The notes: generated by a model not told the origin, from the sequence alone. 44,493 nucleotides of DNA from Klebsormidium nitens (GCA_000708835.1 DF237639.1:1-44493); one strand, 5' to 3'. Positions 865 to 43,281 are shown, numbered from the stretch's first letter. Numbers and translations are program-made.

Positions 865-3800
865 ATGGCTGACGACCTGGCAGAGGATGAAGTGAAGCTC
901 AGTCCACATCTTCAAGAGTGGATTGGTGGCTGGGTGGACTCCAAAAGCAAAGGCAATGACTGGACCCTGCCCTCGGTCAATCTCAAAACTGGGAAGCTAA
1001 GCAAACCACTCGATACCAGGTTCTGGCCGTCGTGCTTCAAGGATTGTCCGGATCCTGTCATTGCCAGCAGGGGACAGACGCGGGAGAAGGTCCTTCAAAT
1101 CTTCCAGAGTGCGGGCAAACGAGTATTCTTCTGCCATTGGCAGGTCCTCTACAACGACCTTGTGCCTATCATCTATTGCCCAAAGTGTGAACAGATCAAG
1201 AACCTGGAGGGGGATGGGTGGACTTTGGCGAAAGTGCGAAGGGTATGCATGCTGATTGGGCCAGCGTTCCTGGTGTCCAAGTGCTACCGCTGCAAGAAAT
1301 GTCCAGGTAATAGCATTCACAAGCCTGTCTTTGTCAATCACCTGTCGGTCAGGCAGTCCACTCCGGTGGCAAATGGTTTGCCAATGCCCTGTTTGGGGCA
1401 GCCCTGTCAGTCTGCATGCTTTGCAGCAATTGTACGAAGAGGACTTGCTCAACTTACTGAACTGGAGCTGAGCTATGATCAGGTCTTTTTTTTTGCCATG
1501 ATCCTGCTTTACTGGAGCTCCAAGTTTCCTGCTCTGGCCATGCTCTTTTGCAGAAAAGTGGTCATTCACTGGACATTTGACCGGACGCCAACATCTGAAG
1601 TCATCATCTCTAGATGACCTATTATACCCTGATAGACGTTATGTAATATGCAGGAAACGAAGGCAAGGACTACCAGTTTCGGGCCCACGACGAGGGCGTC
1701 ATCAAGCAACTATCAGCCGCTCTTGAAGCATCACTCAATATCCGCTTCACGCAGCACGGGGCAGTTGACGTGTCCCTGATGGATTTTCTGCTTCGCAACG
1801 TCAGCAGCGGCGTTGCATTTGCGGACTCAGCGGATGCGGTGCAAGAGCTGCATTACATCACTTATAACAGGAGCAAGTTGGGGCACATGCAGTACACCGC
1901 TGAGCGAGGGAAGCTCGCACTGAAACGTGCTTCGTACTTCAACAGCGCCACTGTTGCGTCAGGGCAGGTGCCACCTCCAGCAGATTTTGGGGCGTACGAA
2001 GACAAGCAGGGCTATAGGGGCTGGATTCCCTCGCGCTCGTACCTTACAAGTAAGCATCTGATCATTGGCACCTGCAGTCTGGCAGATGCCTTACCACTCT
2101 TGCTTTGTGGTTGACAAATTGGATTGGTACATCTTGTCATGCTCAGATTGTCTCAGCACGCTTTTTAGTCTTTCATTTGGAAAGTAGGGTCTTGCGATCA
2201 AAGCCAAACCTTGAAGCTGAGGTGCACAACGCTTGTATGTCTGCAGACTTTGTCGTGCATCAGAAAAGGCTGTCCCTGTGTGGATGTGGAATGGTGAATA
2301 CATACACTGAAACAGTTTGCTTATCCAATGTGGTTCTCTGATTACAGGGACTCTGTTGGCTTACTTGACAGAGCGGCTTGCCTGGCCTAAGGAGCGCCTA
2401 GCCATGGTTGACGGGCTCTACCTTCGGGGTGACCACACGTTCAGGTCTGCCTCAAAGGTCAAGGTTCAAGAGGGGGGCAAGGCTTATGAAGCTATGTACA
2501 CCGTCATGAACGGGTTCAGTAAGGTGGCCGCTCAGTGGATGGTGGGCGATACCTCGTTCAGGGAGATTGAAGGGGGCTTGCGCGACTTGATGAAGCGCTA
2601 TGAGGAGAACTTTCAGGATCGGGTAAGTCAGGATAGAGGTGATTGAAAGTCTTCTGGCTTTTTGAGATTCTGCACATATTTGAGCATAGTGTACCCTCTT
2701 GGCTTGTCTCTCATGACTTGAGGTAATCTCTTCATGGGGCAGACTGGCCTTGTCAAGATTGGAGCGGAAGACAAGCTGGGGGCTGTGCGATGAGATGATG
2801 AGATGCAGACTGAACTTGCCACCAGGGCCGTAATCGCATGGAACCCAGTTGAAGGCCCCCTCGTCAAGCTCTACGCCGTAATCCTCAGCAAAGACCCGCA
2901 AGATTGCATCTTGGAACTGTGTAATAACGCTTTCAAGGAACTCTCCCTCTGGCAGACCGGCGTCCCTCTCCATGTCTAGATACGGTTTACAGGGCCTACC
3001 CTCGACTAAAACTTCCTCCCCATGAGGCTGCCCTCTAAAATTGTCCATTGCAGTGGGCCAATCTGGGTACGATCCGTAACTCCTATACCCTTTGCCACGG
3101 GACAGGTGACGGATCTCAACCCTGTGACCAAGCAGAGCGGCAAAGCGCTTACCGAATTTCTGTGGCCCGTCTTTTGAATCTTTGCAACAGAGTCCAGGGA
3201 GGCTGGAAACTTTCCAAAAGAAAGACGTACCCAGCTTCATCTGTCGAATGATCTGAACGATGCCGCCCTGAAACTTTTCACTGTGCACAACCGTGCTTTC
3301 GGGAGGCAGATGTCGGATGGGGTGCTCGCTGCTTGGTATATCTGGAACGAACTTCGGAGGCTGCAGGAAGAAGAAGGAGAGCCACATAAGCTTTGAGCTA
3401 CACGACGTANNNNNNNNNNNNNNNNNNNNAAATGACCAGAGCGACCATGAGTACGGTGCAAGTGGTTAAGTGCTTGAACACCAAGCAATTGGGCATTGAT
3501 TCCGCAGTTGTTCAGCAAATCTGTGTGCAAGGTGGTGCTGGTCGCACGTCCTCGAGGGAGACTCAGGGGTGGTACTTAATGTGTGAGACTGGTCTTTAAT
3601 TTGTGGCTATCAATATGGTTAGCGGTTAATCCGGTCGAGCACGAAGAAAGATTGGCATGTCTAAAGGAGACCTCGTGTAGGGTGACTCTGCTGGTATCGC
3701 AATGAAGATGCTGATTCTTGATTCTAAACCCTTTGTAGGCGACTTCATGCGAGATCTGAGCCGCGCCATGTTTGTAATCAAGGCCGGGGACAAGGAGAGT

Positions 3801-7893: not shown

Positions 7894-7913
7894 NNNNNNN
7901 NNNNNNNNNNNNN
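7894..7913. other. Assembly gap (20 N)
   Basis: Run of N. Confidence 1.
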
Positions 7914-9063: not shown

Positions 9064-9083
9064 NNNNNNNNNNNNNNNNNNNN
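9064..9083. other. Assembly gap (20 N)
   Basis: Run of N. Confidence 1.
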
Positions 9084-9319: not shown

Positions 9320-12300
9320 ATGGCGACAGCACAGGCGAGTCAAGTGGACGGAGCAGAGGCTTCTGGTGAGGGCGCAGCACAAGCCCCGCAGGACCGGAAA
9401 AGAGCTCGCGCTAGAGAGTACCTGGACTGCAACTTCAGAGATGCAGAAGGGGTTGACTGTGAATGCCCGTCCTTCTGTCAGCAGCAGGAAGGATTGGAGT
9501 GCTCATCCTGCAAGCACAAGCGGGGCTTCCATGCAGCAGATGAAGGTCTTCCAGAGCACGGCGTAACGAAATGCCTGCACAGTAACTGCCGCTGCCTTGA
9601 ATACGACAAAGAGCCGGGAGGCCCCTCTGTGTGCGTTAACTGCAGGCACTCCATACGAAAGCACACGAGTAAGCTTCAGGCAACATCAGTAGTGCCCTCA
9701 GCTCGTTGTCTTCCCAAGCAGGGCCTTCCACGTGCTTGCCCCGCTTGCTTTGTCTGGGAGCAGGCACTCTCCTGTGCTTCCCTGCTTGCTGAATTCTTGA
9801 GGAGGGACTCTCCTGTGCTTCAAAGCTTGCTGAATGTTTGAAGAGGGACTTTCCTGTGCTCGCCCTGTCTCAAGGGGGCCAACCCTTTCAAATGGCGCTC
9901 AACTGCTTGGCCTTAGCATCACCGCTGGTTCATGCAGAGGTGTTGTTCTGGGTCATGGGCTTTGGGACCAAGATGCACTTCAGGCACGGGACGTCGCGCA
10001 ACCAGGTTCGCCGCGCATTCGAGTGCGCTGGTCACAGGCCTGACCTGGAGCTGCTGGCATTTGAAGACGGGACCCTTGTTCCTGTTGGGGAAGACTTGAC
10101 TGGCGGCTACACGTACACGCTACAAGGAGGTAAATCTACTCGTCTTTGTTTCATGTCAGCCTGGTCCAGGGTCAGCGGGAATGAGGTGGCGCACCTGCGT
10201 TTTGCTTACTTCATCTGACGAAGGCCTTGTGACCGGCCCCCTCAGATACTTGACCACTCGTAAGAGCAGCGGGGTTCAAGTGATTCTGGCACACTCCTGT
10301 TCCTGGGAATGCGACACTGCTCTTCTCATGACTTGGACTGGCTGCATCAATCTGCAGACAAACGACCTGCGCGGGTATGTTCTTGGTCGGGCCCCATTGG
10401 AGAGAGGCCCCAATTTGACGAAATGACAGGCACCTACCCGATTCACAGCAGAGCATGTTCCTTCTCTCGTGTTTCTGTCATTATAATCTGAATGTCCATT
10501 TGCCCAGCATGTGACGCCCAGTCCCCTCCTCCTCTGCAGGTCCGGTCTTCTCCGGGCAGCCCCCCATGATGCACACCCCGTCATCATTCCTTCGACGCAT
10601 GTCGCAAATGGGGCGGCCAGAAGAGTTGGCCACACTCATCCCGGACGCGTGGCGGGAGAAGGTTGACAGGTTTCTGGAGCGAGTCCGGTCAGCGGAGAGC
10701 CGGGAGCACCTGAACAGCCTGCCTCTGACGGAGCTTAAAAACGAGGGGAACCACGGTCTGAAGACCGCGGCGTACGAACGGCTCAAGGAAATCCTGGAGC
10801 ATCTCATGACATACCTTCCAGTCGGTTTCCCTCCCCTCCTCTTAAAGCGAGAACCCACTCTGGCCCTGGGAATCAGCGTTCAAGGCAATAGGACGATGGA
10901 GGGTCGCATTGACCTGGTCGCACTCGACCCAGACTGGGAACTGGCCCGCAGCTGGAAGTCCGCTCTGACGTGGGCGGAGATGAAGGGCACGTCCAAAGGC
11001 CCCCAGCCGGCAGAGAAGGACTACACGGCCCAGAATCTCAGCAGAGGGGGCTCTGTCTTCTGCGCTCGGCGGGATTCGGGAGAGGGGGGGACTCAGGAGT
11101 TGCTCTGTATAGGCACAGACTCACGGAATGCAAGCTTCCTGCGCTACAGCATGCACCTAGCGCAGGAGCTGAGCAGGGGTTACTGGGAAAAGACGAAGCT
11201 CTACAAGTTGTTTGGAGACGACGGGGTTCTCATGGTCAACGGGGAGGGCTGCCGCGAGCTCCTGTACGTGCTGCTTCGCACCTCGGAGGTCATGAAGTGC
11301 AGGGAGGAGCAGAGGTTGCAGCTGGCAGCAGCTGCCGAGCCACAGGACTGGGAGCCCGGGAGGGATGGAGAGGGGGAGCGCGTCCCAGGGGCGCTGCGCA
11401 TTGCTGCGCGGGATGTGGCGACAGGAAGTCTGTCGGGGGGCGCGGGCGGAGTTTGCTTGGCAGGCGCCGAGGCTGCGGAAGTCTCGAGTGGGGCGAGGCG
11501 CATGACTGAGGTGGCCATCACCGGGGTTTTCGATGTGGGCGGTGCCTTGGCTGAGGCATTCAGGGGCTTGGTGGTTGCCCCAGTGTTCACCAGCGGGGAC
11601 CTGGCTGTGGTGCGAGACGACCAGGGGGGAGTGCAGACCTTCCAGGTGGATGGGCCCCCGCTGTCCCAGAGCTCGCGCGGCGCGGTGTACGCAGTGCGGT
11701 CTCTTGATGCACCGGGCACCCCGGCTGCGATCCTGCGGCACGGCCAGTGGACCGAGGGGGGCAGCATGTTTGTGGAGGCGCACACGGTTGCGCTGGAGCG
11801 GCTGCAGGGTGTGCATGGGCACCCCAGGGTCATTTGCAAGGGGGTCGTGGACCAGCCAGGAGGCGGTGAGGGAGGTCGGGCCACGGCGCTGGCGGTGGTT
11901 GAGTCGCATGAGGGGACCAGCGTGCAGCCGGGCTCCTTGGACAAGTACGGTGTCAGCCAGCTGGGGGCGAGCCTCTGCGCCCAGCTCGCAGTGCAGTCAC
12001 AGTGCGGGATCCTGCAGCGTGACCTCACCCTGGACAACGTCCTGGTGCGCGCGAAACGGTCGCCCAGGCCCCCCCGGTCTCCCAACCCCCTCCTGCGCAG
12101 CGTCTCTGTGGCTGACTCTGCCCAAACTTCGCGGAGCAGCGATGAGGGGTTCTTGAGCCTGCACTCCCTCTCTTCGTCCGGAGCGTCCAGCGGGGTTTGT
12201 TCACCGACCAGGCCCCGTCAGACCCACCCCTCTCCCTCGCCTACCAGCCCCCTGCAGACAACCCCGGCACCTCGCCCCGATTTGAGCAACGAGTTTGAAG

Positions 12301-12734
12301 GGCTGACCTTCACGAACTGCGACTTCGACCTGGCGGGGGTGGTCGGGGTGACCGAGCGGTTTGGTTTCCGGTACACAAACACCCCTATCGTCAAGAACAG
12401 CTACTTTCAGCCGCATGCTCTCTTCGTCGAGTACCTCACCGCCGGGGATGTGGCGCTCACGCTGGCGCTTGTGATGGCCACCGCTTATAGTGGCATGGGG
12501 GCTCTTCCTTGGGCGGACAAGGCGGCGGCAGCAGACGAGCACGCCGTGCATGCGGAGCTGCAGAGAGCGCTGACGGATCCATGGCAGCTCTTCGGCCTAG
12601 GGGAGGTGCACCCCCTGGTCGGACAGTTTGTACGCGAGGCCAAGGCGGCCGTGCAGTCGGACGCGCACTGGGAGAGGTGGAGCGCCAGCCTGCAGAAGGC
12701 GGCGGACGAGCTCAGCATCCAGCGGGGTAAGTGA
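9320..12734 (+). CDS. Crinkler/RHS (CR)-like multidomain protein: tandem Cys/His Zn fingers, Ubl-like domain, PD-(D/E)xK restriction-endonuclease-like domain, FunK1-like (possibly pseudo) kinase
   Basis: Exons 9320-9668, 9938-10129, 10540-12734, all phase-1 compatible. Two CxC-xx-F/Y-x(7-8)-CxxCxH-xxx-H units; EGRIDLVA..WAEMK..TAQ (D..ExK..Q); kinase motifs GILQRDLTLDNVLV and CDFDLA. A possible donor at ~12728 means further 3' exons cannot be excluded. Confidence 0.75.
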
Positions 12735-14592
12735 TGGGCCTCAGGTCAGCTCTGTGCATCGAGTTGTGGGCTCCACGGGCCATTTGCTTCCTCAGAATCA
12801 GGTGCGGCAAACATGCATGCGAGCTTCTGACGAGCTGAGAGAGGGGAGTGCGGTGTCCGTTTCCCGTCCTCCAGTCTACTCAAGATGCTACCGCAGATTT
12901 TGATCCTGCGTCTGTTGTGCTCGTCCTCCACTCACAAACAGCTTTTTAATGCCAGGGGTGCGCTGCATGGTAGCATCGTCCACCATGACTGTGGCAGATG
13001 GGCTTGTCGTTTGATAATGGTTTTTTTTGCTCTGGTACCAATTATACCCAACCTCAAATCTTGAAAGGAGGCTGTGTTTGGTTCGATAGCACCACAAGTC
13101 GATCGCTCTTGAGGAAACTCTCCATATTGCGTGCAGCGAGCCCAGGAAAGGGCAGCCGGTCACCCTCGCCGAGGAAGCAGGTCGAAGGTCGGCCACTCTG
13201 ATCGGTTGCGCAATTTGGTCTACCTTGAGTCATCAATGCTCAGCTTTGTTCGTGCAAGATCAATCAGTGACGTATTAGCTGCCTCTATGGCTGAGCGATA
13301 TGGGACTCTCAAAAAGCGATAAATTGAAATTGTTTGTTAGGGCTATCTGGTCTGCATGGCTTGACCCATGAGTTCATAGCTTTGGAATCAAGTGTGACGC
13401 AAATCATGCAACACATTGAAAGCTTTGTGCACACAATGTTCGATCTCATCTATCTTACCTTGCGCGCCACTGCTTGAAAGTATGCTGAGTACGAGTCGTT
13501 TTTCAATCACAATTTAGAATACTTTTGATACATACTTGTGAACATATAATTGATCATTTGAAGACGCAATTGCAGTGCTTTTCAATGCAAAGTGTAGCTT
13601 CAAAAGCCCATGCATGGCCAATGGAGCATCGTATGATAGACAAGTGTACTCTTCAATTTGTTGTGGTCCTATAGGCGGTTTGGCTGGATAGCTTCATCAA
13701 ATGCAACCGGCATATCTAGGTCAACGTTACAAATAAGGTTTGGCTCCCGATGACTCGATTTGTGCATATAGCGATTGCATATGAACGCATATTGATGTGC
13801 GTCAGTAACGTTTGTCCATGAAAATTCATGATGAAGGCGCAATGAAGGGGCATCATTGGGGCAAACACGTTCCGTATAGTGTAACTAACTCTCCATCCTT
13901 CAGATTTGGAAATGTATGTAATCCCTTCCAGACCAACGACGTGTGACTTGCACAAGCGACCTTGAGAGTCTGATGATCAATGACGGAATGGCAGGCGAAA
14001 GGACTGAACGAATATCTACAGTGCGGGATTCCTGTACCGAAGGATGTACTTAAGGTATGCCTACAGTACGAAAACATCAATTCGAAGGATGTACCTAAGC
14101 TGTTGTGAACGCTCGAACCACCTCGATGATCGGCGCTCGACACATTGGACAGGTTTCCGTGGTCTGTTGCAGCTGCCTTGCACAGTTATGGCATGCGCAC
14201 ATGTCTCCACATCTGCAATCAGAAAGGCCCTTGAGAAAGTGGGCGAATATCGCTACTGCTGCTACCGTAATTGCTTTGAAAACCAGCTCTCAGATGAATA
14301 ATGGTGGACTCCACGCTTGGGAAACAGAAGATTCTCGAGGATATAAAGAGGCTCCGTTGCATCCGGAGGCACCCCGTTGAAAATTGTGTCGCATGTTGCA
14401 AGGCGTCAGTATAAAAGCCATGTCAATACTCCGAAGGAGAAAGCGAATGCCACCAGCATACGTATTGGTCCACGAAGGGAGCTCGCTTCCGTGCGGCCTC
14501 TGCAAAGGATGTCGACAAGCTCTGCCGCAATCGCCTACCTGTACATCAGCGAGTCGATCGGGCTCTCACAGCACACGAAGCACACGCCTCTC

Positions 14593-17500
14593 TTAATGGC
14601 AGCGTGACTTGGAACCGTCCAAGTCCGTCTGGTATGCAGCGCTGATCTTGTTGAGCTCCCCGCAGCACACATTGCTGGCTTCCCGTCCGCTTGGGTCCAC
14701 CCTCCACACCGACCCTGTCCAGATGTACCACTTCTCGTTGGAGAAGACGAGCTTGTGGCCGGTGTAGATTTGCAAGCGATCAGTGATCTGCGCGCCACCC
14801 TCGTCACCTGCAGATCAGTGAGACGCTGGGGTGCTGCCCATAAAATCGAACCAAATAATCTGATCGGCCGGCCTAGTACTACAATTTTCGGGCAAGTCCG
14901 GCTAGAATAAAGACCCTGACACTCAGAAAGCAGCCACCCCCACCGTTGAAAGTGACACACTTCAGATCTACGAAGCTCCGAAAGTGTTGTTCGAGGATGA
15001 TTGCTTTCTTCATCCGGCTGATTTTCAACGGTAAAGATGAGCTCGAGAGCGGGCAGAGACCACAGGACGTACTTGGGAGTTCGTCAGAAAGCTGCTAGCC
15101 TGAGGAAGAGTGCATTCCTCTATTGACTCGTTCATCTCCTGTATGGTATCCCGGATTGCCGACTGGTTGATGCACGACAGAATTCAGGAGCGCTTTCTAG
15201 TCTGATAGGCCCAGAATTTGTGCAGGATCACTGGTTTACGAAACCTATGCACGACCATCCTGGCGCGACTCACCTGAGAAGATCGAAAGGTTCTGTTTCA
15301 AGAACCAGAGTGGAAACAGCTCCCGGTCCTCGTACAGTCAATCTCGCTCGCTGTTGAGGTGCTCTGCATCCGAGAACGCGGCCGCTACTGGGAAGGGGAG
15401 CCGACCCAGCTTCTTCTTCGCGCGGCCACTAGCGCTCTGGCACCGCCCACTGTGGCACACGTAGGTGATCTCCGTTCCTCTTCTGAGGAGACCAAAATTG
15501 TTGCTGTTGTGCCCCCGGTCCCCCGGCTTGAGGTGTGGGCACGACTCGCGGCCCCCTGGACCATTCCGAAAGTGGTACATAACAGCCCCTGGACCGGCGA
15601 CCGTGCTCGCTTCCGCGTTGCTGAAGACTGAAGTGTTCTCTCCGTAACTGCTGAGCAGGCCCCACAGGACCTCGACCAACGTCTTGCTACAGAGCAGCAT
15701 CCGCAAGATCCGGCGCCTTGGAGAAAGCGGACGGGGCCTCGACCCCAGACACTTTCTCGACTGCGACCTTGACTTTCATCCGCACTTTCGCCCCCCCAGC
15801 TGCCCTCGAAGCGCGCTCGTTCAGGATCCCGATGACCCAGTCGGGAAGCTGTGGCAGGGCATCTACGGCTGGCAGCTCCCCTCTGCTGGCCGCAGTGTAT
15901 CGCGCGACCTTCTCGCCCCGCTGGTAGGACGAGGGGGGGCACGCTATCATGCCGTTCAAGCTCACGTCCCGCATGTCCACCCCCACTTCCTTGAAGGACT
16001 CCTTCCCCATTTCAGGGTCCCGAGCCCTGAGCTTCAATTTTGCAAAGTGCATCAGGGTGTCTGCGCCCAAACCCGCCTCTAGACTCTTCTCACGCAAGAA
16101 GTATAGGTGAACCCCCCCGCTGCCTGTGCGCACTCGCGGCTCCGTGAACGAACCGTGCTCCCTCTCCCACTCAGCTAGCTGCTCCACGCCCCCGTCCGCA
16201 TGGTCGAAGTCCAGCACGAGAATGCCCGAGGCAGCTGTGTTGACCAGGAGAGTGTTGATAGGGGTTGAAGAAGGGGGGGGCGAGGCAATTGGTGATGGTG
16301 GACGCCGGCCAATCCTTGGGCGGCCTCATGCTCTTTCCGCCCTTCCCGCCCTTGGCGTCGGGGTCCCACTTGGTGTTTGCAGAGAAGACGGCGTATCCTT
16401 TCTCGACCATGCCCCGAGCTGCGGTTGCCTGCAAATGGATCAAAATTCGATTTCAGTTTTTCGGAGGCAGACTTGCGAACCGTTTACGAAATTTCAGCAA
16501 GCGCGAAAACTGCTGTCCGCGCTGTCTGCGCCGTCCATGGAGGGAAATTCGTAGTAGCTCAGGCCTCTACATAGACAGCACGGCTGTCAGCGCTTGTTGG
16601 GCTTCTGAAATGGCACGACATTCAACTAGGAAAAAGGCGGAAGATCATAGGAGTCTAAAAAGCCTTGTCTACGCTGTCCACGTTGTCCATGAAGAGGGAT
16701 CTGTAATTGTTGGTCTTCCTTCATGGACAGTACTGCTGTCAGCACTTGATGAGTTTCCACTGATGCGCAAGTCAGAGGAGAGATGAGGACAAACAAGCCT
16801 CTTGAAAAACCTTGTATATGTTGTCCACGCTGTCCATGAAGGGCGATCTCTAGCAGTAGGGCTTCTTTATTGCATACACAACACCGCTCTCCACACTTAC
16901 TGAACTTTCTGCGATGGAGCCTGCAAAGGACAGCCCTCCAAAAGCACTGCTGTACATGTGAAGAACTCACCATCTGATCTGCTCCGAGTTCCCTCTCTTG
17001 GTCTGCAAGGCGATGATCGTTGACAGAATCGACCGGCTCGAGGCAATCGGCGGCCCTGGCCGTGTCAGAGCAAGTCTCCCCGCCGTCCTCTTCGGAAGGC
17101 TCATCGTCAGCACCTTCGCAATCATCCTCGGCAGAGAATGATGCTCGCTGCGAGAGGGCCTCCAAATCCTGCAGAAATAACCTGAAATCTGAAAGGCTTG
17201 TCCGCGCTGTCCCCGTTGTCCGTGGAAGGAGGTCTAGATAGCTGGCTTCTCTTCATGGACAGTACGCTGTCAGCGCTGAGATCGTAGCGATTTCAAAAGA
17301 TGACTACAAAAGCACGCTTGTGAACTACACCAGGCAGTCAATTGAAAGTCACGAAACGAGAAGTCATGTTCACGTTGTCCTAGCTGACGCCCCTACAAGT
17401 GTGTGCCATTTGAAATGGAAGCGAAGGTCCAGGACTCTGTCCGCGCTGTCCATGTTGTCCATGAAGGGAACTCTCAAACAGGTGACGCTTAGCATAGACA

Positions 17501-17620
17501 GCGATGCTGTCAGCCTCACCGAGTCGTACCTGCCCATGGCTGTCTCAACGTCGACCTCCTCCTCGCAACCATCCCCGCGTGGCTCACTTGTTGCCTCAGC
17601 TGCGGCCCCTACTTCAACAT
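14593..17620 (-). pseudogene. Intron-containing bifunctional Prim-Pol + Zn-binding domain + D5_N primase(-helicase) gene, decayed, helicase part not seen
   Basis: Exons ~17520-17620, 16971-17168, 15274-16428, 14593-14807 with matching phases. Prim-Pol motifs ILVLDFD, RVRTGSGGVHLYF, VDMR..NGMIACPPS..Y..LPDWV. Zn motif RESCPH..HNSNNF..YVCHSGRC. D5_N-like GDEGGAQ..LVFSNEKWYIWTGSVWRVD. Lesions: frameshifts ~16255 and ~15700, in-frame TGA 15338-15340, TAA 14593-14595. Confidence 0.8.
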
Positions 17621-19880
17621 GTTTGCGTTTCCTGCCGCGTCCATGATGGGCGGCGGAGACGTCACACGGAACAGACAGCACAGCGTTTCATCGAAAAAAG
17701 GGATACCCTTGCGCAGCAATCAGCCTCATCAAGAGCTTTTCCCCACAAGACAGCCCTGCTGTCTACCAAGACAAGGACGCGACAAGGAGTTTGTCTGGAT
17801 GGACAGCTCGGACAGCGAAGACGGCTCTTATGATGTGGTCACCGCTTGGGATTACAGTTTACTACATGGCCTTGCCTCCGACGAGATTGGTGACTAGCCA
17901 GCCAAGCAGCATATCAGGGCCTGTTCTTGACGCACACTGCGCAGGGCAGTAGCTCACCTGATCACTGTTCATCTGGTTGCATTGGATGGGCTCTGCCCGT
18001 CTCGGCGATGACAACCTTTCCTTCACAGTCCATTGGCGGCAATCCTCCAGCACCCTGCATGGCATCGCATCATCAGTTAGTGACCTTGATCGATAGTAAG
18101 CAAAGCATCAGGGGGCTGGCCTCGACTCGCCGTCCATTGTGATTAGCTCGGACAGGATCAAGACCAGCTTTCATCTACAAACCGCTCTACATGGACAAGT
18201 TGGACAGCGTAGACACCATGTTTAGAAGCCCTCAGAACTCGGATCGACCGACCCTCTACGTTGACCAGTTGCACCGGTCCATGATGTCAACATCAAGACT
18301 CTTATCTGCTGTACTTGAAGCATGTTTCCAACTCTCAAGCTCACCTGATCGCTACAGTTCCTGTCACTTTCTTCACGAAGGCTTTTTTGAAATGCTTCAA
18401 ACGAGATACTAAAGAGAGTCTGCCTTGCGACTTCGTCTAATAGGCCCTCCATCTGGAAACGAGAAAGAGGGGTCAATGAAAACCATGCCAGTCTAATGCG
18501 TCTTCCACCAACACCGGACACCTCAGCCAAGCCTTCCTACAGACGAGATTTTTCAGCGTCAAATCAAACAACAGCCTGCAGGCAATCACATGAATGCACC
18601 GCTGCAAGAGATGCTTTCACCCTGAGTGAATGTCCACAACAAGTCTGACGCTATATGTGCACCTTTACAATCGTACCTTGGAATGCCTAGCGCTGCTAAG
18701 CTGTGTTGTTCACTGAAGTTCCTCTATTTTGCAAAAATGAAACATGCGATATAGCAGCACAGCGCCTGTGCGCGCTTGGCGCAACCTCAAGAAAGCAACT
18801 ACCTAGATAACAGAACACCAGCTCACAGAAGTCGACCACTCATGGCCAGTCAGCGGTGTCTTAGAGCGCATCTTCTGGCAGCACTGAGGGGACACAATTG
18901 GTGCCGAGCGGTTCAATTCTGGCAGTTCAATCCTGGCAGCATGCACCCTGGCCTTGGCATTGGCCCCCAAATTGGTAGTTGTATACTGGGAATGCAGCTT
19001 GCGGATTTTGTCATCTGATGTTTTCCCAAGTTTGACGTGGGTTGAGAACCTCAGTCACCCCAGGAAAAAGACGCTAGCAGCCTGGCAATGGAAGAGTGCA
19101 CCACCACCTCCAAGAAGCAGAAAGCAGATATACTCAGAAAAGGCCAAGATTGGCGACACTTACCTCAGAGACTCATTCTGTATGCCGCAAAAACCAACGC
19201 TTCATTTTGGTCATGCTTGTCTGAAAGGCTTTGAACTACAGGCTCTGTGTGAGGAGCTTCAAAGCAGGTGCTTCAGTCTGGCAGCATCAGCCGCGGGTCA
19301 GGCGCAATTGGCGCCCATGGGGGGCTTTACTTAGCTGATTCAAGACGGTGGCGGTTCTATCACATACGTCAGCAGTCCTAACGCTCTGATCTAGCTAGAT
19401 GCCAGAAACTCAGACACGGCGAAACATATGCTCTAGACTGCGGCCTACTCCTGGCGCCGCGCCACTTCGATCAGCTGTGCTGCCCAGCCTGTGCTGATGC
19501 TGAGCCTTCAATGAACTGGGCATCCCACCTGCTTCATCAGCCTACTTACGTGGCGAGGCAGTTACAGACTCTGTTTTTGCGAAGTGTATGCCGAGGCAAT
19601 TGAATGCAGATTCTGTTTTCTTCTTTCGGATCTCACGGACGTCCCCTCTGAGCTGTCTAGAGGTCACAAGTCCCTCTTCATGGACAGCGAGCTGTCAGGC
19701 CGCTCGGCGTCCGGTCCCTATTAAGCCGTGTCTCACCGCTGTCTCAGGTAGCCTGGCGTCCGACCAGAATTGTAATATTTAAGCTTATTCGGATTTTCCA
19801 GAGGCGTGTCTGAGCTGTCTGGGCCGTCTATGAAGAGGGCTCGTGAATGATATTCCGTCCCCACGAACAGCATGCTGTCC
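16512..19880. repeat. Dispersed family of ~80 bp structured sites: (TGTCY-N4)x3-ATGAAG..~24 nt variable..CTTCAT-GGACAG-N3/4-GCTGTC
   Basis: Complete forward units ~16512-16591, 16663-16745, 17197-17277, 17436-17515, 19807-19880; reverse unit ~17745-17825; half units ~16811-16845 (+), ~18190-18216 (-), ~19677-19698 (+). Confidence 0.85.
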
Positions 19881-20295
19881 GAGCTCGGACGGAGCGGTTG
19901 GGGAAACCAGGTCTGCCGAAAAGGTCGCGGCGGTGGCCGGTTGGGGGCTGGGGCCGGCGACCGGGGCGCGGCTAACTGCTAGGAGGGGGTACACGTGTAG
20001 CTTTGGGGTTGGTCCCTTTTATGCCGTTCAACAGATGGTTAGTTGGGCTGCGCTGCATATCCACATCATTTCATGTGTGAGTGTGTGTGTTGGTGAACAG
20101 CCTGGTAATATAACGTGGGCGCTGAGGAATGCCAAAAGCTAGCTGTTTTGGACAGCTTTCAACTCGCCAGCTGAAGCAAACGCTTTCTCTAGAGGCTGGA
20201 AATCTGGTGTGGCATTGCTTCATGCTGCTTGCTCGTCACGTCTGCTCACAATTGCGCAGGAATTGCAGGAAGCTGGGCATGATTGTGTCATAACC

Positions 20296-20938
20296 ATGAA
20301 CGATCAGCTGGCAGGCCTGGGGCTGCTGCTCTTCAGCATCAGTGTCTTTGTTTACTACACCCTCTGGGTCATTGTGCTGGTGAGACGGCCTTGCGAACAA
20401 CCGAGTACCATCGCTCATATTGATTGTCTGTATCTGGTTTGTTCAGTCCAAACAAACTATCTTTTCACTGCACCAGAATGGGGCGGTGAGATTGTGTTGG
20501 AGTACTACCAGATAAGATGACTCGAGGACTCCTGTTGTCTCGGCAAGTTTGAGAATTGTGCACCACTAAAGGTCCCCACTTCTGTGATTTATGCCCATAG
20601 AAGTTGCCTGGCATTTGCAACTGTACAAGTTGACTAGCACCTGCTGTGGGAAGATGCTTTCTTTGACAGTCAGGTGTGTTTGCTGCACACCGTAAGCTGG
20701 CGTGCGCCCATCTACTCCAGGACTAGCGCCCGTCAGTGTGCACAGTCTTAAGCTCTCTTTCCTGTGCACACTGCAGCCATTTGTTGACTCCGACCACGCC
20801 GTCCATAGCTACTTCCTTCCGCAAGAGTATGCCATTGCCCTACCAGTGGGGGCCCTTGTGCTGCTTCTGAGCTTCCTCCTGCTCTTCCTGGGGATCCTGA
20901 TGGTTAGAAGCAGGTTAGGAAAGAAGAAGAAAGCCTAG
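20296..20938 (+). CDS. DPM2: Dolichol-phosphate mannosyltransferase regulatory subunit
   Basis: Exons 20296-20379 and 20777-20938: MNDQLAGLGLLLFSISVFVYYTLWVIVL|PFVDSDHAVHSYFLPQEYAIALPVGALVLLLSFLLLFLGILMVRSRLGKKKKA. The YYTxWVIxLPFVD..H..FLP signature, two TM helices and C-terminal KKKKA match DPM2. Confidence 0.93.
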
Positions 20939-25454: not shown

Positions 25455-28400
25455 GCGAGGGCCGGTCCCCCCAAGAGAATGGCCCTAGCTCTTGGCAACA
25501 TGAACGCGATCGCGATGCCTGGCGGCCTACAGGGAGGCCGCGTAGCTTTGAAGATGAGACTGCGCACATGGGTGGGAGGGGGCTTCAGCGGGGGGGCCCA
25601 GACAGAGAGAGGGACAGATGGGACAAAGAGCGGGGCGAAAAGGAGATTGGGGCAGGGCCCCAACGGGGCAATGGGCCTCGCAATTTCGCTGAAAATCATC
25701 GGCCGATAAACCCCCCAGGCTTTGGTGGGGCGCGCTGGGGGGAAACCCGAGCAGGGCCAGGGGGGAGGTTTAGGCCGGACGATAGGGACCGAGAGGGGTA
25801 CAATGGCCCGGGCCGCTTCCGAGGAGATGAGGGTAAGGGAGGTCAAGATTTTCCCCTCCCATGACGATTTACGGGTAACTCTTTGTGTTTGTAAGCTTCC
25901 TGCTCTTGGATAACAGAGACTGGTGATTGACAGGGAGGGCCTTGAATATTGTCTTTATTGGTTCCATTCGTTTGGTTGTTTTAAGGGCGTTTGCAGAGAG
26001 CAATGCGTCGTCTCCATGCAGGGTCCAGCTGTGTTTCTTTCATAGGTTTACCCCCTTTGTCTTGCTGCCATTCTGCTGCCTTTCTTGGCCTTGTTCACCC
26101 GAAACTTTAGAACCCTGCAAAACACACTGTAAAAGTGACCATCTGAGAAGCACCTGTTGCCCATTCCAGGCGGCCGCGGTGCTGGGCCCGGCCACCACGG
26201 TCCCGGGGGTCCTGCTCGGCCACTCTGGGATCATCCCTCAGGTCGGGACCGAGGGCCCCCAGGTGCAGGAGCCTCTCGCCCAGGTCCAGGCTTTGACAGA
26301 AGAGGGCCTTCAGATGACAAGAGGGGCCCCCCTGCAAGGGTGAGGCCCTGGTGACGATATATGTCAACAGACAAAGAGCTGATTGACTTGATTTGAATAG
26401 AGACTTGTACAATCAGCCATGAGCTTGTACGATCGGCCGTGCGCTTGAACGGTTTGAAGTTGGCGCAAACTCTTTGGAGATTGCAAGGGTGATTGCTGGA
26501 TTGTGTGTAGCAGAAGGATTGGATCCTCATGCTGCCAGCAGCTGCTCAATCAGCTGCTTCTGGTGGGGATGCAGCCGACTGGCGGGAGTGACTGGGACAC
26601 CGACAACTACAAAGATGACGAGACGTTTGGATTTGATGACCCGAAGCAGCAGACCGGGACGGAGAAAGAGGAGGAAGAGAAGAGGCGCCGAGGTAAGAGG
26701 TTGTTGGGAACTCGTAGGCAGTATCATTCTGCACTCTTCCTTTCAGGCATGTGAGAATCAGATTCTCACAATGATCTGGTCTTATGTAACTCGATTTTTC
26801 AGGTGGTGTGATTTGAAGGCCTTTCATTTGAGCACTTGAGCTGTTATTGCCAGAACGACGGCATGATGTTCGTTGTAATAAACCACAGAGTAATTGCTCT
26901 GCACGTCCTCAGCATTTCGGGTTTCCTATTCTGCCACCATTGATACAGCGCTTTTTTTTGCTATGTCAAGCTCGACATTGCTGCTCAACCTGCCTGTTGA
27001 CGAAGGTCTCCCCTGCGGTCATTATACTTCCCGTAGTCTGCGTGCTTTGGATTTCTGTGTCAGCTTTTTGCATTCACATGCTTGCACCACGGAGCGGAGA
27101 ATCCTTATGCCGAAACGACTCAGAGAGCTACTATGCCTCCTGTCACACGTGGATCAGCCTGCATCGGAGATGCGTAATTGTACTGTACTTTTGCACGATG
27201 ACATACGCTTCTGTGTGGGTTGTGATGCATTCGTGTCGGTCCCTGCAGTCCAATTCGAGAAGGAGTTTGAGGCGATGCGGCAGGCGCGCCACAAGAAGCC
27301 CGAGGCCGCCGAGGGCGAGAACACGCCCAGCAAGAAGCACGACGAGGACGGCATCTGGGACACCAACCTCAGCTTCGAGGAGTCGTCCACCACGACCACC
27401 GTCACCGCGGGGGGCCAGGTGAACCGCCGCACCGTCACCTCAACTTTGACCGGGCTGCGCGCCCCCCCCGGCTTTGGAGGGGGTGCCTTCAGAAAGGGCG
27501 AGGACCTGGCCGGGCCCGTCACGCCACGCACGCCGAGGGCGAGCGATGGGGACTGGCGCATCAACAAGCGCGTGGTGACTGAGGAGAGCGTGGAGCCCGC
27601 GAAAGACAAGACACCCGCCAAAGCAGCTGAAGCAGGGGCGGCGGGAGCGAAGGAAGGGAAGAGTGAAAGCAGCTGGCTCAAGACCCCGGGGGGGCCTAGC
27701 CTGCTGGACACTATCTTTGCGTCAGGGGACAAGGGCGCAAAGGAGACGAAAGACGAGGAGGGGAGCGCGAAGGAGGGGAGCGCGAAGCGGGGGGAGAGCC
27801 TGGTGCTCAAGAACCTGTTCAAGAACGCGCACAAGAAGGTGTTCCCCGGGCTGGCAGATGACGACCCGGTGAGTACGCGCTTGGAACCCGTCGAGGGTGT
27901 AGGCCTCCCTCATGAATGCGAGCTTCCTTGGTGGGAGTGCTCGAAAAGCTTGGGAAGTTTGTATTTGCCACTATTGCTGCTATTGCGGACCTTTTTAGTT
28001 CTAACTTTCGTGCGAAAATGTTTGAAAAGGTCCAGCCAAGATTGACTTCGAAATGAGGTGGGGGCATCATTCGAAAGCATGCCGACAAGTAGATAGAACA
28101 GCAGAACATGAGGAAAGGGTTGCGGGCTGACTAGTTGCAGGGACAGCGTCTGAATTGCGGGGCGCTTGTCGCAGGTCACTGAAGCGGTGTTGAGCGACCG
28201 CTGGGCCGATGCTGTCGAGGCAGAGGAAGCTGATGCCAAAGCGTCCAAGTTCGCTCGATGGTTTAACTCGGAAGGTGCGTATAAATCCAGAAGCCAGTCG
28301 ACTGGCACTAGTCGACAAGCACTGGTGATTTCATTTTCCAGACTAAACTACCTTCTGCTCTCCGCCGTCTGTTGCCATCTCAAGCATGCACCTCAACTTG

Positions 28401-32472: not shown

Positions 32473-33923
32473 CTTGCTCCACTCTGCTCCAAGGCCGCTG
32501 ACGCGCTGCTTGAGCTGCATGATGGGCGTGCCCAGCTCCATCTCCACCTTCTTCCTGAGCCAGTTCTCGTCCAGCCCAAAGCTCCCGAGGTACCGGTCAT
32601 ACCGGTCCTTCACAGCCTCAAGCGCCGCCGCAAACGTGTCCTTAGTGGCCTGCAGACAAGGTTTGCAGAGACGGGACGAGGTCACAAAAAAGTAGCTCAC
32701 TTTAGACTTTCCCTTCTGCTGAAGAAGATGGGTCCATAGCAATCGAGTCTCCAGAAAAAAGGAGCTTCTTGTACTTGAAAGAGGATGATTCTTTATGACT
32801 GCACCTTAACGCCTCCACGCCTTTGAGCCACCACACAACACTAGAAATGCCTATCTCTGACATAAACCTCAAAAACAGAGGACAGACGACCACCCTCACA
32901 TTGCCATCATTGCTCTGATCGTCCAGCTCCATCCTCATCTGCTCCAGCCTGTCTGAAAACTTCTCAACCGCATCCGCAGCCCTCCAGGCGTCCTTCAGCA
33001 GCTCCGATTGAGAACCGCCTTTGCTGAGGACGGCCTGCACGTCCTTCTTGACTTCCTCTGGGAGCTTTTGCCAGTTGGAGGCGAGCAGGGCATTGATCGC
33101 CTTGCTGACATCCTCGTCATCGATGTGGGGGAGAGTGGCGCTGGTGTAGCTGCTCATGAAGCGGTAGGGAGTGGAGCTGAAAGCGGAAGGAGCGGCAGCG
33201 CCTGCGGGGGAGACGAGTACTGAGAATTAGTTGTTGGGACGGACCAAGAAAAGATTCCCCTCTCTCAAGCTTGCCCACAGACTGTCAATGTGCGGGTATC
33301 AATGAAGTGCAGGGAAATCCTTGGGGCATTTTAGAAGAAAATTAAGGAGAGCAGTATCTTTGGGAAGTTTTGACTTGCAGTGCCTGATCATCAGAACAAT
33401 CTAGACCGGCTTTGTCCACTATCTCTTTGGCAGCTACAACCTTCCCGCTCCTTCTTGCTACATGCTAAGAGGAAAGCTAGGGAATCTCAATGCAGTGAAA
33501 ATGCTAACACCGTTTGTCCAACGACCGAGTCACTTCTGGTACAAGAGCTGCCAAACCAGAGAAGCTGAAAGCCAGCGAGCCAGATGGAGACTTGTCATGG
33601 CTGGCCTCAGTGCTTGCTAGGTTGTTCAGTGAGTTCTCAGATTCCTTTCACATAAGATAAAAATCATGGCTCTCGCATAGGGATCCGCAATTGCTCTCAT
33701 GTGGTGGCATGACTATTACAAAAGGGAAAGTCTTCACGCGGACCAGGAAAGAAAAGGACTACTCACCAGAGAAAAGTCGGACGTCACTGCCGTGCTGGCA
33801 GGCTGCTCTGCTTTGATCATCAGCTGCCTTGCATGCATTCTCAACAAGCACAGGCAGCGATGCGTGGTTGGATTTCAACATGGTGTTGCGGCCACACTGC
33901 CGAAGAATCAGACGCAGTGCCAT
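32473..33923 (-). CDS. SDH5: Plant-specific succinate dehydrogenase subunit 5, mitochondrial; last exon not located
   Basis: Exons 33767-33923 (presequence-like MALRLILRQCGR..), ~32900-33220 and 32473-32649. LPHIDDEDV..ALLASNWQKLP..AWRAADAVEKF..MELDD and RYDRYLGSFG.DE.WLRKKVEMELGT..LKQRVSGLGAEWSKV match the SDH5 family. Confidence 0.88.
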
Positions 33924-41883: not shown

Positions 41884-42321
41884 TATGATTGTAACGTGTT
41901 TGAAGATGCAAAATCCAACGATGTACTCTTCTGAGTATTAATGCCAAATGCACGCCTGCTGGGTCTCCAAACGATGCAACCCAGAAGGCCCGAGGTACTT
42001 GGAATTTATGTACTCCTCTGTTCTGATAGTGAAGGGGGACTCCTTTCGGATTACGGTGTAGGAGCTCCTCTTATTACTATTAGGTAGTCTCCCTGGCCTC
42101 ATGATGTGAGATGAATGTGAGCGCTGAGGATTCGGAGTTGGAGCCTGTGTGGCGGGCGCCGGGCAGCTCAGCCTCTACAGTCTATAGACTAAAGGCTACA
42201 GCCTACGACGACAGAAGTCCGGGGCCATTTCCTACTGCAACTAGAATTGACTGATTTCTTCGCTGTACAAAGGAACGGTAATCTTAAAGGTAACTCTTAT
42301 CCAATCCAATCGACGCGAGTC

Positions 42322-43281
42322 NNNNNNNNNNNNNNNNNNNNNNNNNNNNNNNNNNNNNNNNNNNNNNNNNNNNNNNNNNNNNNNNNNNNNNNNNNNNNNN
42401 NNNNNNNNNNNNNNNNNNNNNNNNNNNNNNNNNNNNNNNNNNNNNNNNNNNNNNNNNNNNNNNNNNNNNNNNNNNNNNNNNNNNNNNNNNNNNNNNNNNN
42501 NNNNNNNNNNNNNNNNNNNNNNNNNNNNNNNNNNNNNNNNNNNNNNNNNNNNNNNNNNNNNNNNNNNNNNNNNNNNNNNNNNNNNNNNNNNNNNNNNNNN
42601 NNNNNNNNNNNNNNNNNNNNNNNNNNNNNNNNNNNNNNNNNNNNNNNNNNNNNNNNNNNNNNNNNNNNNNNNNNNNNNNNNNNNNNNNNNNNNNNNNNNN
42701 NNNNNNNNNNNNNNNNNNNNNNNNNNNNNNNNNNNNNNNNNNNNNNNNNNNNNNNNNNNNNNNNNNNNNNNNNNNNNNNNNNNNNNNNNNNNNNNNNNNN
42801 NNNNNNNNNNNNNNNNNNNNNNNNNNNNNNNNNNNNNNNNNNNNNNNNNNNNNNNNNNNNNNNNNNNNNNNNNNNNNNNNNNNNNNNNNNNNNNNNNNNN
42901 NNNNNNNNNNNNNNNNNNNNNNNNNNNNNNNNNNNNNNNNNNNNNNNNNNNNNNNNNNNNNNNNNNNNNNNNNNNNNNNNNNNNNNNNNNNNNNNNNNNN
43001 NNNNNNNNNNNNNNNNNNNNNNNNNNNNNNNNNNNNNNNNNNNNNNNNNNNNNNNNNNNNNNNNNNNNNNNNNNNNNNNNNNNNNNNNNNNNNNNNNNNN
43101 NNNNNNNNNNNNNNNNNNNNNNNNNNNNNNNNNNNNNNNNNNNNNNNNNNNNNNNNNNNNNNNNNNNNNNNNNNNNNNNNNNNNNNNNNNNNNNNNNNNN
43201 NNNNNNNNNNNNNNNNNNNNNNNNNNNNNNNNNNNNNNNNNNNNNNNNNNNNNNNNNNNNNNNNNNNNNNNNNNNNNNNNN
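42322..43281. other. Assembly gap (960 N)
   Basis: Run of N; the long X-filled ORFs here are artefacts. Confidence 1.

Follow-up and report, generated by a model that had tools for sequence, protein, structure and literature searches.

The window analysed here is a stretch of 44,493 bases from Klebsormidium nitens (GCA_000708835.1 DF237639.1:1-44493), and it holds nine to ten diverged copies of a DNA module of about 85-90 bp. The modules lie in and just upstream of a transcribed gene of primase ancestry. The transcript was read from RNA-type contigs; the runs were taken as RNA by guess, splice joints were seen in four of four of them, and the contig depths are unfit for ranking expression. 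The genes and homologies of the locus are these:

14212..19626, minus strand: spliced transcript with exons 19164-19626, 18344-18452, 17529-18053, 16970-17167, 15270-16427 and 14539-14803, and a last exon ending at 14212
14584..16443, minus strand: Prim-Pol and D5_N homology in three different frames, with changes near 16258 and 15695, ending near 14600
16970..17167, minus strand: exon homologous to the acidic N-terminal exon of the full-length paralog P0008 (57% identity, E 2.9e-14)
14095..14596, minus strand: RING finger (zf-C3HC4_3), split between the final part of exon 14539-14803 and the exon that stops at 14212, adjoining the end of the D5_N homology
20296..20938, plus strand: DPM2 gene, the divergent neighbour, with coding exons 20296-20379 and 20777-20938 (PF07297, E 1.9e-16 and 8.1e-8)

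All introns of the transcript are GT..AG on the minus strand, and the lower end of its last exon, beyond 14212, is unmapped. The DPM2 splice is visible in a loose contig end at 20379 that matches 20777 onward. There is no long open frame in the joined transcript, which appears to be non-coding. There is a Prim-Pol match (E 3.7e-10) and D5_N homology, but the helicase and C-terminal region are absent from this copy. The coding segments that show homology remain open over 73-212 codons, so the gene was probably broken recently. The local gene is thus a transcribed, frameshifted, truncated Prim-Pol/D5_N copy fused to RING exons, a pseudogene. The original prediction placed the sites in the introns and upstream region of a primase gene; those introns and that upstream region are real and the gene is derived from a Prim-Pol gene, but it is no intact primase-helicase. 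Since it is a fragment without a helicase, it could not supply the protein for an origin in cis.

Homology places this copy in a multi-copy P4-type Prim-Pol/SF3 primase-helicase family specific to Klebsormidium. There are at least nine K. nitens loci, seven of them at 39-88% identity to the query region of P0008, and intact paralogs exist elsewhere. P0008 itself scores 118.7 bits with TIGR01613, the P4-family primase C-terminal model, against a curated cut-off of 108.7, and it also has Prim-Pol, D5_N and DUF5906. The exon order of the window gene is the same as in P0008, so its introns probably go back to the ancestor of the family. Members of the family have repetitive N-terminal regions.

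The copies of the module, labelled U1 to U10, are arranged as follows:

16506..16596, plus strand: U1, complete, in intron 16428-16969; profile E 1.3e-23, a training member
16658..16748, plus strand: U2, complete, with the clearest inverted arms, in intron 16428-16969
16805..16899, plus strand: U3, left half intact, right half degenerate and 4-5 nt longer, in intron 16428-16969
17192..17279, plus strand: U4, complete, in intron 17168-17528, about 25 nt from the acceptor
17431..17515, plus strand: U5, complete, in intron 17168-17528, about 12 nt from the donor
17620..17690, plus strand: U5b, a possible degenerate unit in exon 17529-18053, 71% to the reference left half, 9/9/36 geometry; profile E 8.5, weak
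17745..17831, minus strand: U6, complete, reversed, inside transcribed exon 17529-18053
18149..18219, minus strand: U7, keeps its three boxes intact but lacks a right half at the standard distance, in intron 18054-18343; profile E 9.9e-10, not a training member
19648..19698, plus strand: U8, one box and a right half with the palindrome; profile E 8e-5, not a training member
19729..19744, plus strand: two loose TGTCT boxes at an 11-bp period, read directly
19799..19886, plus strand: U10, complete with slightly degenerate boxes, in the gap that separates the divergent genes

A full module begins with three (G)CTGTCY boxes that repeat head to tail every 9 bp and continues with a free spacer of 29-30 bp. 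Then comes an inverted CATGGACAG box, which together with a final GCTGTC box makes the palindrome GACAGC-N2-3-GCTGTC. This geometry is held tightly. The distances from box 1 to box 2 and from box 2 to box 3 are 9 bp each in nine of nine units, box 4 to box 5 is 9-10 bp, and the central spacer is 29-30 bp in all six complete units (U1, U2, U4, U5, U6 and U10). Box 3 to box 4 is 40-42 bp start to start in these six, which is the same distance that had been described as 33-34 bp. The outliers are U3 at 46 bp, where the right half is degenerate, and U5b at 36 bp, a weak copy. U1-U3 form a tandem triplet with a period of about 150 bp (spacings 152 and 147). Units do occur in both orientations as claimed, U6 and U7 being reversed and the others on the plus strand. 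The five-box layout stands for the six complete units and not for U7, which has no right half at the standard distance, or U8, which has a right half and one box. At 19729-19744 there are just two loose boxes, with an 11-bp period instead of 9.

The array of about nine sites with fixed geometry that had been proposed is real and it is local. The pattern TGTCY-N4-TGTCY-N4-TGTCY, with at most one mismatch, matches eight times in the 44,493 bases where 0.01 is expected; all eight matches lie within 16514-19829 (3.3 kb), and none of 100 shuffled sequences reached eight. The interval 16400-19900 is 8% of the non-N window and holds 12 of the 15 two-box matches, eight of the nine window matches to CATGGACA, and all ten matches to GACAG-N3-5-GCTGTC. 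These last fall at six loci, four of which are palindromic and therefore counted on both strands. A profile trained on seven units and then run over the whole window adds two partial units, U7 and U8, and gives no match below E 0.5 and no further copy in the other 40 kb or so, outside 16500-19900. The window shows no element end, recombinase or second array, and scans for relatives, in DNA other than that of paralogous or orthologous loci, gave none.

With respect to the genes, units U1-U5 and U7 are spliced out. U8-U10 sit in a gap of about 430 bp between the ends of the transcript contigs (19507-19626) and the starts of the DPM2 contigs (20055-20070), which one contig of run X9 crosses. U8 lies 22-72 bp past 19626, the end of the longest transcript contig stopping before the gap, and the remaining units are within the first 3.1 kb or so of the transcript. 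The array was said to halt before the first housekeeping gene and it does, the last unit ending at 19886, short of the DPM2 contigs. It was also said to avoid exons. Most units are indeed intronic or intergenic, but U6 and the weak U5b are inside exon 17529-18053, and since 40% of the transcribed span is exonic, finding one of seven units in an exon is not significant (binomial P about 0.16). The minus strand of U5b encodes a basic stretch common to P0008 (protein match E 0.64). An exon-end motif is present three times in the region; one unused copy of this exon-end/donor motif is at 17951-17966, and U6 lies downstream of it.

Conservation within the array is uneven. Pairwise identity of the boxes between units is 0.82, or 0.86 without U5b. 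Elsewhere it falls to 0.42 in the 4-nt gaps (non-box parts range from 29 to 43%), 0.40 after box 3, 0.34 in the 5' flank and 0.29 in the spacer beside the right arm, where chance is 0.25. In 5000 random sets of columns the box identity is never attained, although this permutation is a measure of heterogeneity and no prior-hypothesis test, because the box columns were chosen after their conservation was seen. The original prediction of conserved boxes and spacing with diverged spacers therefore holds, with boxes at 82-86%, spacers near chance and lengths fixed; the spacers are not as conserved as the boxes (0.29-0.43 versus 0.82). The combination supports a reading of the modules as putative protein-binding sites, for which it is the expected signature.

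The explanation we prefer, and hold with middling confidence, is that the array consists of anciently duplicated composite DNA modules, likely DNA-level putative sites for a sequence-specific multimeric protein. Such a protein would bind the three direct boxes cooperatively and the palindrome as a dimer, and because it would do both, the boxes and the spacing would each be held by selection. The most likely role of the modules is cis-regulatory, though we suggest it only tentatively: they would act as promoter-proximal and intronic enhancer-type modules of the host gene. They are placed at the 5' end of the gene, in successive introns (one of them now exonised) and in the gap of about 430 bp that separates the divergent genes. 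The modules may possibly have been inherited from a functional ancestor of the primase-helicase family, and may possibly be recognised by that family's own winged-helix C-terminal region. Against ordinary cis-regulatory clusters, an 85-bp composite repeated with fixed internal geometry would be unusual for transcription-factor sites, and present-day selection on regulation of the host gene is not evident since that gene is a pseudogene.

Among clusters of transcription-factor sites and repeated enhancer modules, one comparison is with the auxin-response elements bound by ARFs. According to a review, these have a TGTCNN core, expected once per 256 bp by chance, in direct (DR), inverted (IR) and everted (ER) arrangements, of which IR7/8 and DR4/5 are preferred (PMC10690724). 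Like them, the modules have a TGTC core in direct and inverted arrangements, and they lie in the promoter region or introns of a streptophyte gene. TGTC or its complement is present in every box, but at one chance occurrence per 256 bp this likeness carries little information. The arrangements differ from those preferred by ARFs, since the units have DR3, an everted pair at 6-7 bp (ER6-7) and an inverted pair at about 29 bp, and not IR7/8 or DR4/5. The conserved box, (G)CTGTCY, is also longer than the ARF TGTC.

A different use of protein-binding sites would be in replication, and origin, excision-site and subterminal-array readings of the modules are conceivable, though no result points to any of them in particular. 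The modules could be iteron-like origin or episome-maintenance sites for the intact P4-type primase-helicases encoded elsewhere, embedded in the initiator gene, in its promoter and its introns, and left here as a recent relic. We consider this unlikely, but it deserves to be set out. The alpha primase-helicase of phage P4 binds iterons in ori and crr, and both it and the SF3 helicases of small DNA viruses recognise brief sites, repeated in direct and inverted order, in or beside their own genes; the arrangement of direct boxes, free spacer and inverted pair resembles the origins of such initiators. The score of P0008 above its cut-off, its other domains, the multi-copy family and the open frames that suggest a recent break are in keeping with this. 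As in P4, the protein is of the same type (P0008, P4-family model) and the repeated direct and inverted sites are in or beside the initiator gene. Polyoma- and papillomavirus-type SF3 origins have sites of 5-6 nt in inverted pairs in a promoter region, and the modules share with them pentamer-scale boxes, inverted pairs, a divergent promoter and an adjoining gene of an SF3-helicase family.

There are also differences. Unlike P4, this is an intron-bearing, broken gene in a eukaryotic chromosome, and the putative sites are 85-bp composites over 3.4 kb; to our knowledge the box sequence is unrelated to the P4 iterons. The viral origins have one core and AT-rich flanks, whereas here there are many dispersed modules, no AT-rich flank and no helicase in the local copy. 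Ten modules over 3.4 kb would be atypical of origins, and spacers with a GC content of 0.48 in a region of 0.52 are not AT-rich. Thus repeated short sites with fixed phasing are found, but not an AT-rich stretch or an intact initiator in cis, the local frame having changed twice. With its several introns, the family looks like a long-standing resident of the nucleus and not like an autonomous replicon. Translations of the box triples are absent from the 21 proteins compared, nine of them K. nitens paralogs, which is a weak null. The fuller proposal, which we find quite improbable, is that the modules would be the origin and maintenance sites of an undescribed family of P4-type primase-helicase replicons that carry introns and reside in the chromosomes of a streptophyte alga, the window copy being recently disabled but keeping its full set of sites. 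An initiator gene whose own promoter and introns house the initiator-binding sites would then be a eukaryotic counterpart of P4 ori and crr.

DNA-transposon subterminal repeats, MITEs and introners offer short motifs in both orientations over a few kb with an association with introns, and the modules are like them in each of these respects. A MITE-like miniature unit or solo transposon ends inserted repeatedly, or an intron-creating introner-type element, would also suit the partly inverted arms and the mainly intronic position, with two units 12-25 nt from splice sites. We doubt it strongly. The tiny intron-associated mobile unit raised in the original prediction is not supported, given the absence of target-site duplications, the longest common flank word being 2-4 nt in seven of seven units, and homology that extends well past the unit: most units have about 10 nt of it to the left, and U1-U4 about 35 nt to the right. 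There are no sharp ends, U1-U3 are tandem, and no copy is found in the other 40 kb or so of the window. Unlike those elements, the modules lack a transposase and terminal inverted repeats flanked by target duplications, and the window has no second array. Recent copies of a master element would not have spacers so close to saturation. A MITE is not supported, as terminal inverted repeats with sharp ends and a target-site duplication are missing, and neither is an introner, as introns carry three, two and one units at variable distances from splice sites and are similar only at the units.

Could the modules work as RNA instead? Opposite-orientation intronic copies might pair in the pre-mRNA and affect splicing or back-splicing of exon 17529-18053, or serve as small-RNA precursors. 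Oppositely oriented units do flank this exon, with U5/U7 83% complementary over 29 nt and U2/U7 85% over 40 nt, in a transcript that is apparently non-coding. But no unit matched Rfam at E up to 1, and single-unit folds are inconsistent (z -2.67 to +1.20, one of nine below -2). Pairing in the inverted arms is 80.5%, the mean of 500 shuffles is 80.3%, and 271 of these are as high; with no covariation beyond conservation they look like two sites, not a selected hairpin. A snoRNA, a miRNA precursor or another Rfam family is unsupported on the same grounds. The splice joints seen are all forward, and pairing should constrain whole arms, not boxes of 5-7 nt at a 9-nt period. DNA sites fit better than RNA elements because the units occur in both orientations relative to the transcript and three of them are upstream of the contig ends, save for one X9 contig. 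The RNA-level reading is very doubtful.

Hardly any more room is left for a non-functional relic of old tandem or segmental duplication with boxes conserved by a non-binding cause such as local mutational bias or conversion: the tandem U1-U3 at about 150 bp, the thrice-present exon-end motif, the repetitive N-terminal regions of the family and the pseudogene host speak for it, but box identity of 0.82 against 0.29-0.43 elsewhere, and spacers of 29-30 bp in six of six complete units despite near-random sequence, are a pattern hard to get without constraint on both sequence and spacing. A coding repeat (MDxxDSxD or similar) is not supported, since U1-U5 and U7 are spliced out and no long frame runs over U6, the only exonic full unit, so that no translated MDxxDxxD exon is found. 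Of 27 boxes, 25 have GAC as the would-be Asp codon and none has GAT, yet positions 1-2 of the neighbouring codons are free to vary; this places the constraint on DNA letters and not on codons.

We return then to putative binding modules for a multimeric protein. Conserved boxes at fixed distances in otherwise saturated repeats give footprint-like resolution from a single locus, and they define a precise candidate site, three (G)CTGTCY boxes and a GACAGC/GCTGTC palindrome. If the modules are unique to this locus, they would be a cis-regulatory repeat of an ordinary kind, if unusually regular, at a divergent promoter. If they recur at the other ten or so Klebsormidium primase-helicase loci, they would give a P4-type primase-helicase family of eukaryotic chromosomes its first linked cis element. 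They would also help to place that family as domesticated genes, as a transposon, or as a replicon that derives from an episome or a virus.

A family of short composite repeats occupies the region 16500-19900. Its members are copies of a module of ~85 bp, labelled here U1-U8 and U10 with a weaker U5b, and they lie within 16506-19886, U6 and U7 being reversed. The three-box pattern TGTCY-N4-TGTCY-N4-TGTCY, allowed up to one mismatch, has eight matches in the 44.5-kb window, and all eight fall at 16514-19829 against an expectation of 0.01. This bears out the iteron-like array around the primase gene that the original prediction had placed at 16512-19880. None of 100 shuffles gives eight such matches. 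Other parts of the module cluster in the same way. The array region is 8% of the window and contains 12 of the 15 matches to the two-box pattern, 8 of the 9 to CATGGACA, and all ten to GACAG-N3-5-GCTGTC; these ten come from six loci, of which four count once per strand. A profile HMM trained on seven units (U1-U5, U6 and U10) also finds two partial units it was not trained on, U7 at 18219-18149 (E 9.9e-10) and U8 at 19648-19698 (E 8e-5), and its scan of the window finds nothing better than E 0.5 outside the array region. U5b (17620-17690) is a possible copy, 71% identical to the left half of the reference with a weak profile score of E 8.5. The closest approach to a unit outside the array, three GACA-type boxes with 12- and 9-bp spacing at 25600-25625 on the minus strand, lacks the CATG arms and the palindrome and is probably due to chance.

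A full unit begins with three (G)CTGTCY boxes, of which the third is lengthened to TGTCCATGAAG. A spacer comes next, then the inverted arm CTTCATGGACAG and, 2-3 nt further on, GCTGTC(AG), so that the final two boxes make a GACAGC/GCTGTC palindrome. The distances from box 1 to box 2 and from box 2 to box 3 are 9 bp in all nine units, and the spacer between boxes 3 and 4 is 29-30 bp in all six complete ones. The original prediction had given the spacing of boxes 3 and 4 as a constant 33-34 bp; the six complete units do share it, at 40-42 bp measured start to start. U3, whose right half has decayed, exceeds that spacing by 4-5 nt, and U7 has no right half at the standard distance.

Conservation is concentrated in the boxes. 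Pairwise identity in the box columns is 0.82 (0.86 without U5b) against 0.25 by chance, and it is 0.42 in the 4-nt gaps, 0.40 after box 3, 0.34 in the 5' flank and 0.29, near the chance value, in the spacer adjoining the right arm. None of 5000 random column sets matches the box value; the box columns were picked after inspection, so this permutation gauges heterogeneity and is not the test of a prior hypothesis. Weak homology continues past most units on the left, for ~10 nt, and past U1-U4 on the right, for ~35 nt. Since U1-U3 form a tandem triplet with a ~150-bp period and homology reaches into the flanks, we conclude that the family goes back to local duplication of a unit exceeding 85 bp. 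Everything but the boxes and their spacing has decayed since then. A larger duplication of ~390 bp (17700-18125 and 18090-18520) was considered and rejected: only the left half of the unit and an exon-end motif with its donor are kept, and the remainder is near random.

The gene that carries most of the array is a broken one. Homology to the Prim-Pol and D5_N proteins of Klebsormidium nitens (59-67% identity) runs from 16443 to 14584 on the minus strand, spans three different frames and ends near 14600; no helicase was found in this copy. Transcript evidence comes from the contigs of four runs from four studies, mapped on the window. The runs were taken as RNA by guess, and their canonical joints indicate RNA; contig depths and parts without contig cover, such as 16431-16872, were kept out of the evidence. 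The features that matter for the array are these:

19164-19626, 18344-18452, 17529-18053, 16970-17167, 15270-16427, 14539-14803 and one ending at 14212, minus strand: exons of the spliced transcript, from contig joints
16428-16969: intron of this transcript, containing U1-U3
17168-17528: intron, containing U4 and U5
17529-18053: exon, with U6 and the weak U5b inside it
18054-18343: intron, containing U7
between 19507-19626 (ends of the transcript contigs) and 20055-20070 (starts of the next gene's contigs): U8, two loose boxes and U10
20296-20938, plus strand: DPM2, regulator of dolichol-phosphate-mannose synthesis, two exons (PF07297, E 1.9e-16)

All introns of the transcript read CT..AC on the plus strand. 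The result is a chimeric spliced transcript (14212-19626, minus strand) that contains the Prim-Pol/D5_N fragment and then terminal RING-finger exons (zf-C3HC4_3), the RING finger at its 3' end abutting the end of the D5_N homology. It is apparently non-coding, and joining its exons in silico gives no long reading frame. The contigs show no differences from the window, so the frame changes are real rather than errors of assembly. At 16270-16280 eight G in a row adjoin the first Prim-Pol frame change (near 16258), and there too the RNA-type contigs agree with the window. One of the runs, X9, alone shows an alternative joint from 18452 to 18803, where the other three have only 18452 to 19164, and one of its contigs lacks 14 letters at 18908. 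The exon holding the D5_N end near 14600 also encodes the first half of the RING, which suggests that the junction is a rearrangement or insertion breakpoint within an exon. All the homologous coding segments remain open, with frames of 73-212 codons, from which we infer that the gene broke recently.

An intact relative of this gene exists in the same genome. KFL_004840020 (P0008 in our comparisons) is a full-length paralog of 1101 aa with Prim-Pol, D5_N and DUF5906 domains, and it scores above the curated cut-off of the P4-family primase C-terminal model. K. nitens encodes relatives at at least nine loci, seven found by a search with the P0008 helicase region and two in a cluster listing. The seven are 39-88% identical to that helicase region, and the next matches are metagenomic proteins at 26-34%. 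The primase-helicase loci are KFL_004840020, 013000030, 011390020, 007660010, 002790160, 005140020, 003010010, 011850010 and 011920010. Exon 16970-17167 has its counterpart in the acidic N-terminal exon of P0008 (57% identity, E 2.9e-14), and the N-terminal exons stand in the same order in both genes, so the introns bearing the units probably belong to the ancestral gene structure. An exon end with its donor (GATCAG(ATG)/GTGAG, minus strand) occurs three times locally, at 16966-16975, 17951-17966 and 18338-18353. Two copies, those at exons 16970 and 18344, serve as donors, and the copy at 17957 lies unused inside exon 17529-18053, whose upstream part thus looks like an exonised former intron. 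P0008 likewise has this exon end more than once, from which it follows that exon duplication enlarges the N-terminal region in this family. Two proteins of a more distant K. nitens subfamily, P0016 and P0017 (39% identity), carry N-terminal repeats of ~30 residues in which Gly, Ser and Ala are abundant and Met-Asp recurs. An NCLDV origin of the gene was considered and set aside; in a table of PMC5294986, the D5 column is apparently empty for K. flaccidum.

DPM2 is the gene next to the array and is divergent from the primase-derived transcript. The 5' ends of both are approximate because one X9 contig crosses the gap between them. The original prediction held that the units avoid exons. This lacks statistical support, since one of seven units is exonic where exons make up 40% of the span (P ~0.16, binomial). 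Elsewhere in the window an open frame at 32702-33226 (minus strand) matches plant-type succinate dehydrogenase subunit 5 (SDH5; PF14290, E 3.1e-17), a sign that the window belongs to the green lineage. A 739-codon open frame at 10515-12734 (plus strand) has no Pfam match; its language-model features resemble divergent protein-kinase-like proteins, and the clusters closest to it, with a score of 0.98, are hypothetical or kinase-domain proteins of streptophytes. Scaffold gaps of 20 letters lie at 3410-3429, 7894-7913 and 9064-9083, and one of 960 letters at 42322-43281, so the low GC at 42001-43000 is an artefact.

The boxes and their phasing have been kept while their surroundings became near random. 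The units occur in both orientations and partly outside the transcript, and their arms lack covariation. For these reasons we favour recognition at the DNA level by a sequence-specific multimeric protein, a proposal to which we give an even chance. Such a protein would occupy the three head-to-tail boxes cooperatively and the palindrome as a dimer. The array sits at a divergent promoter and in the 5' introns of a nuclear, intron-bearing gene, so the likeliest function of the modules is, tentatively, cis-regulatory.

The original prediction named a replication origin for the primase-helicase as one possibility. In favour of an origin, the gene family belongs to the P4 primase-helicases, whose prototype binds repeats within and beside its own gene. 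However, the local gene is unable to supply the protein, ten modules across 3.4 kb are not origin-like, and an AT-rich unwinding element is absent, the spacer having a GC of 0.48 against 0.52 for the region. We consider an origin unlikely.

The boxes also recall the TGTC core of auxin-response elements. Passages of the review PMC10690724 give IR7/8 and DR4/5 as the arrangements that ARFs prefer; our units instead contain DR3, an everted arrangement with 6-7 bp, and inverted boxes ~29 bp apart, so ARF-type syntax is rejected. A small mobile unit, offered originally as an alternative, is not supported either: target duplications are absent in seven of seven units, there are no sharp ends and the window has no copy elsewhere, which argues against a MITE, and with 3, 2 and 1 units per intron at variable distances from the splice sites the units do not look like introners.

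The original prediction had considered that the boxes might lie in translated exons encoding MDxxDxxD repeats. Six of the seven full or left-half units in the transcribed span (U1-U5, U7) are spliced out, and no long frame runs over the exonic U6. Read in the Met-Asp-x-x-Asp-Ser-x-Asp frame, 25 of 27 boxes have GAC as the Asp codon and no box has GAT, and there is free variation at positions 1-2 of the 'x' codons. Coding sequence would show the opposite, and coding repeats are rejected. Translations of the box triples are absent from the 21 proteins compared, and the ORF 16626-17252, sought as a read-through trace of units, had no match at E up to 1 in a set of 300 candidate proteins. Structured RNA, whether an Rfam family or a stable hairpin, fares no better. 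The units have no Rfam match at E up to 1, single-unit folds give z from -2.67 to +1.20 with one of nine below -2, and covariation is absent from the 11 arm pairs (80.5% are paired, where shuffles give 80.3%, and the one double-sided change is equalled in 374 of 500 shuffles).

Searches of public contigs found no counterpart. The left-half DNA pattern occurs in 101 stretches from metagenomes and 2 from viral contigs, each a single or unrelated match; a full unit is absent from all 103 loci, as is any match to the primase or the region (tblastn, blastn). Primase relatives number zero among 188 metagenome pattern matches and zero among 44 viral ones. Literature searches on Klebsormidium primases, endogenous viral or polinton-like elements and ARF TGTC sites listed no paper on the array or the gene family. 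From the original interpretation, then, protein-binding modules stand as likely, and the functions as origin, excision site or element end are unsupported. The array is best described as conserved composite repeats of predicted binding sites.
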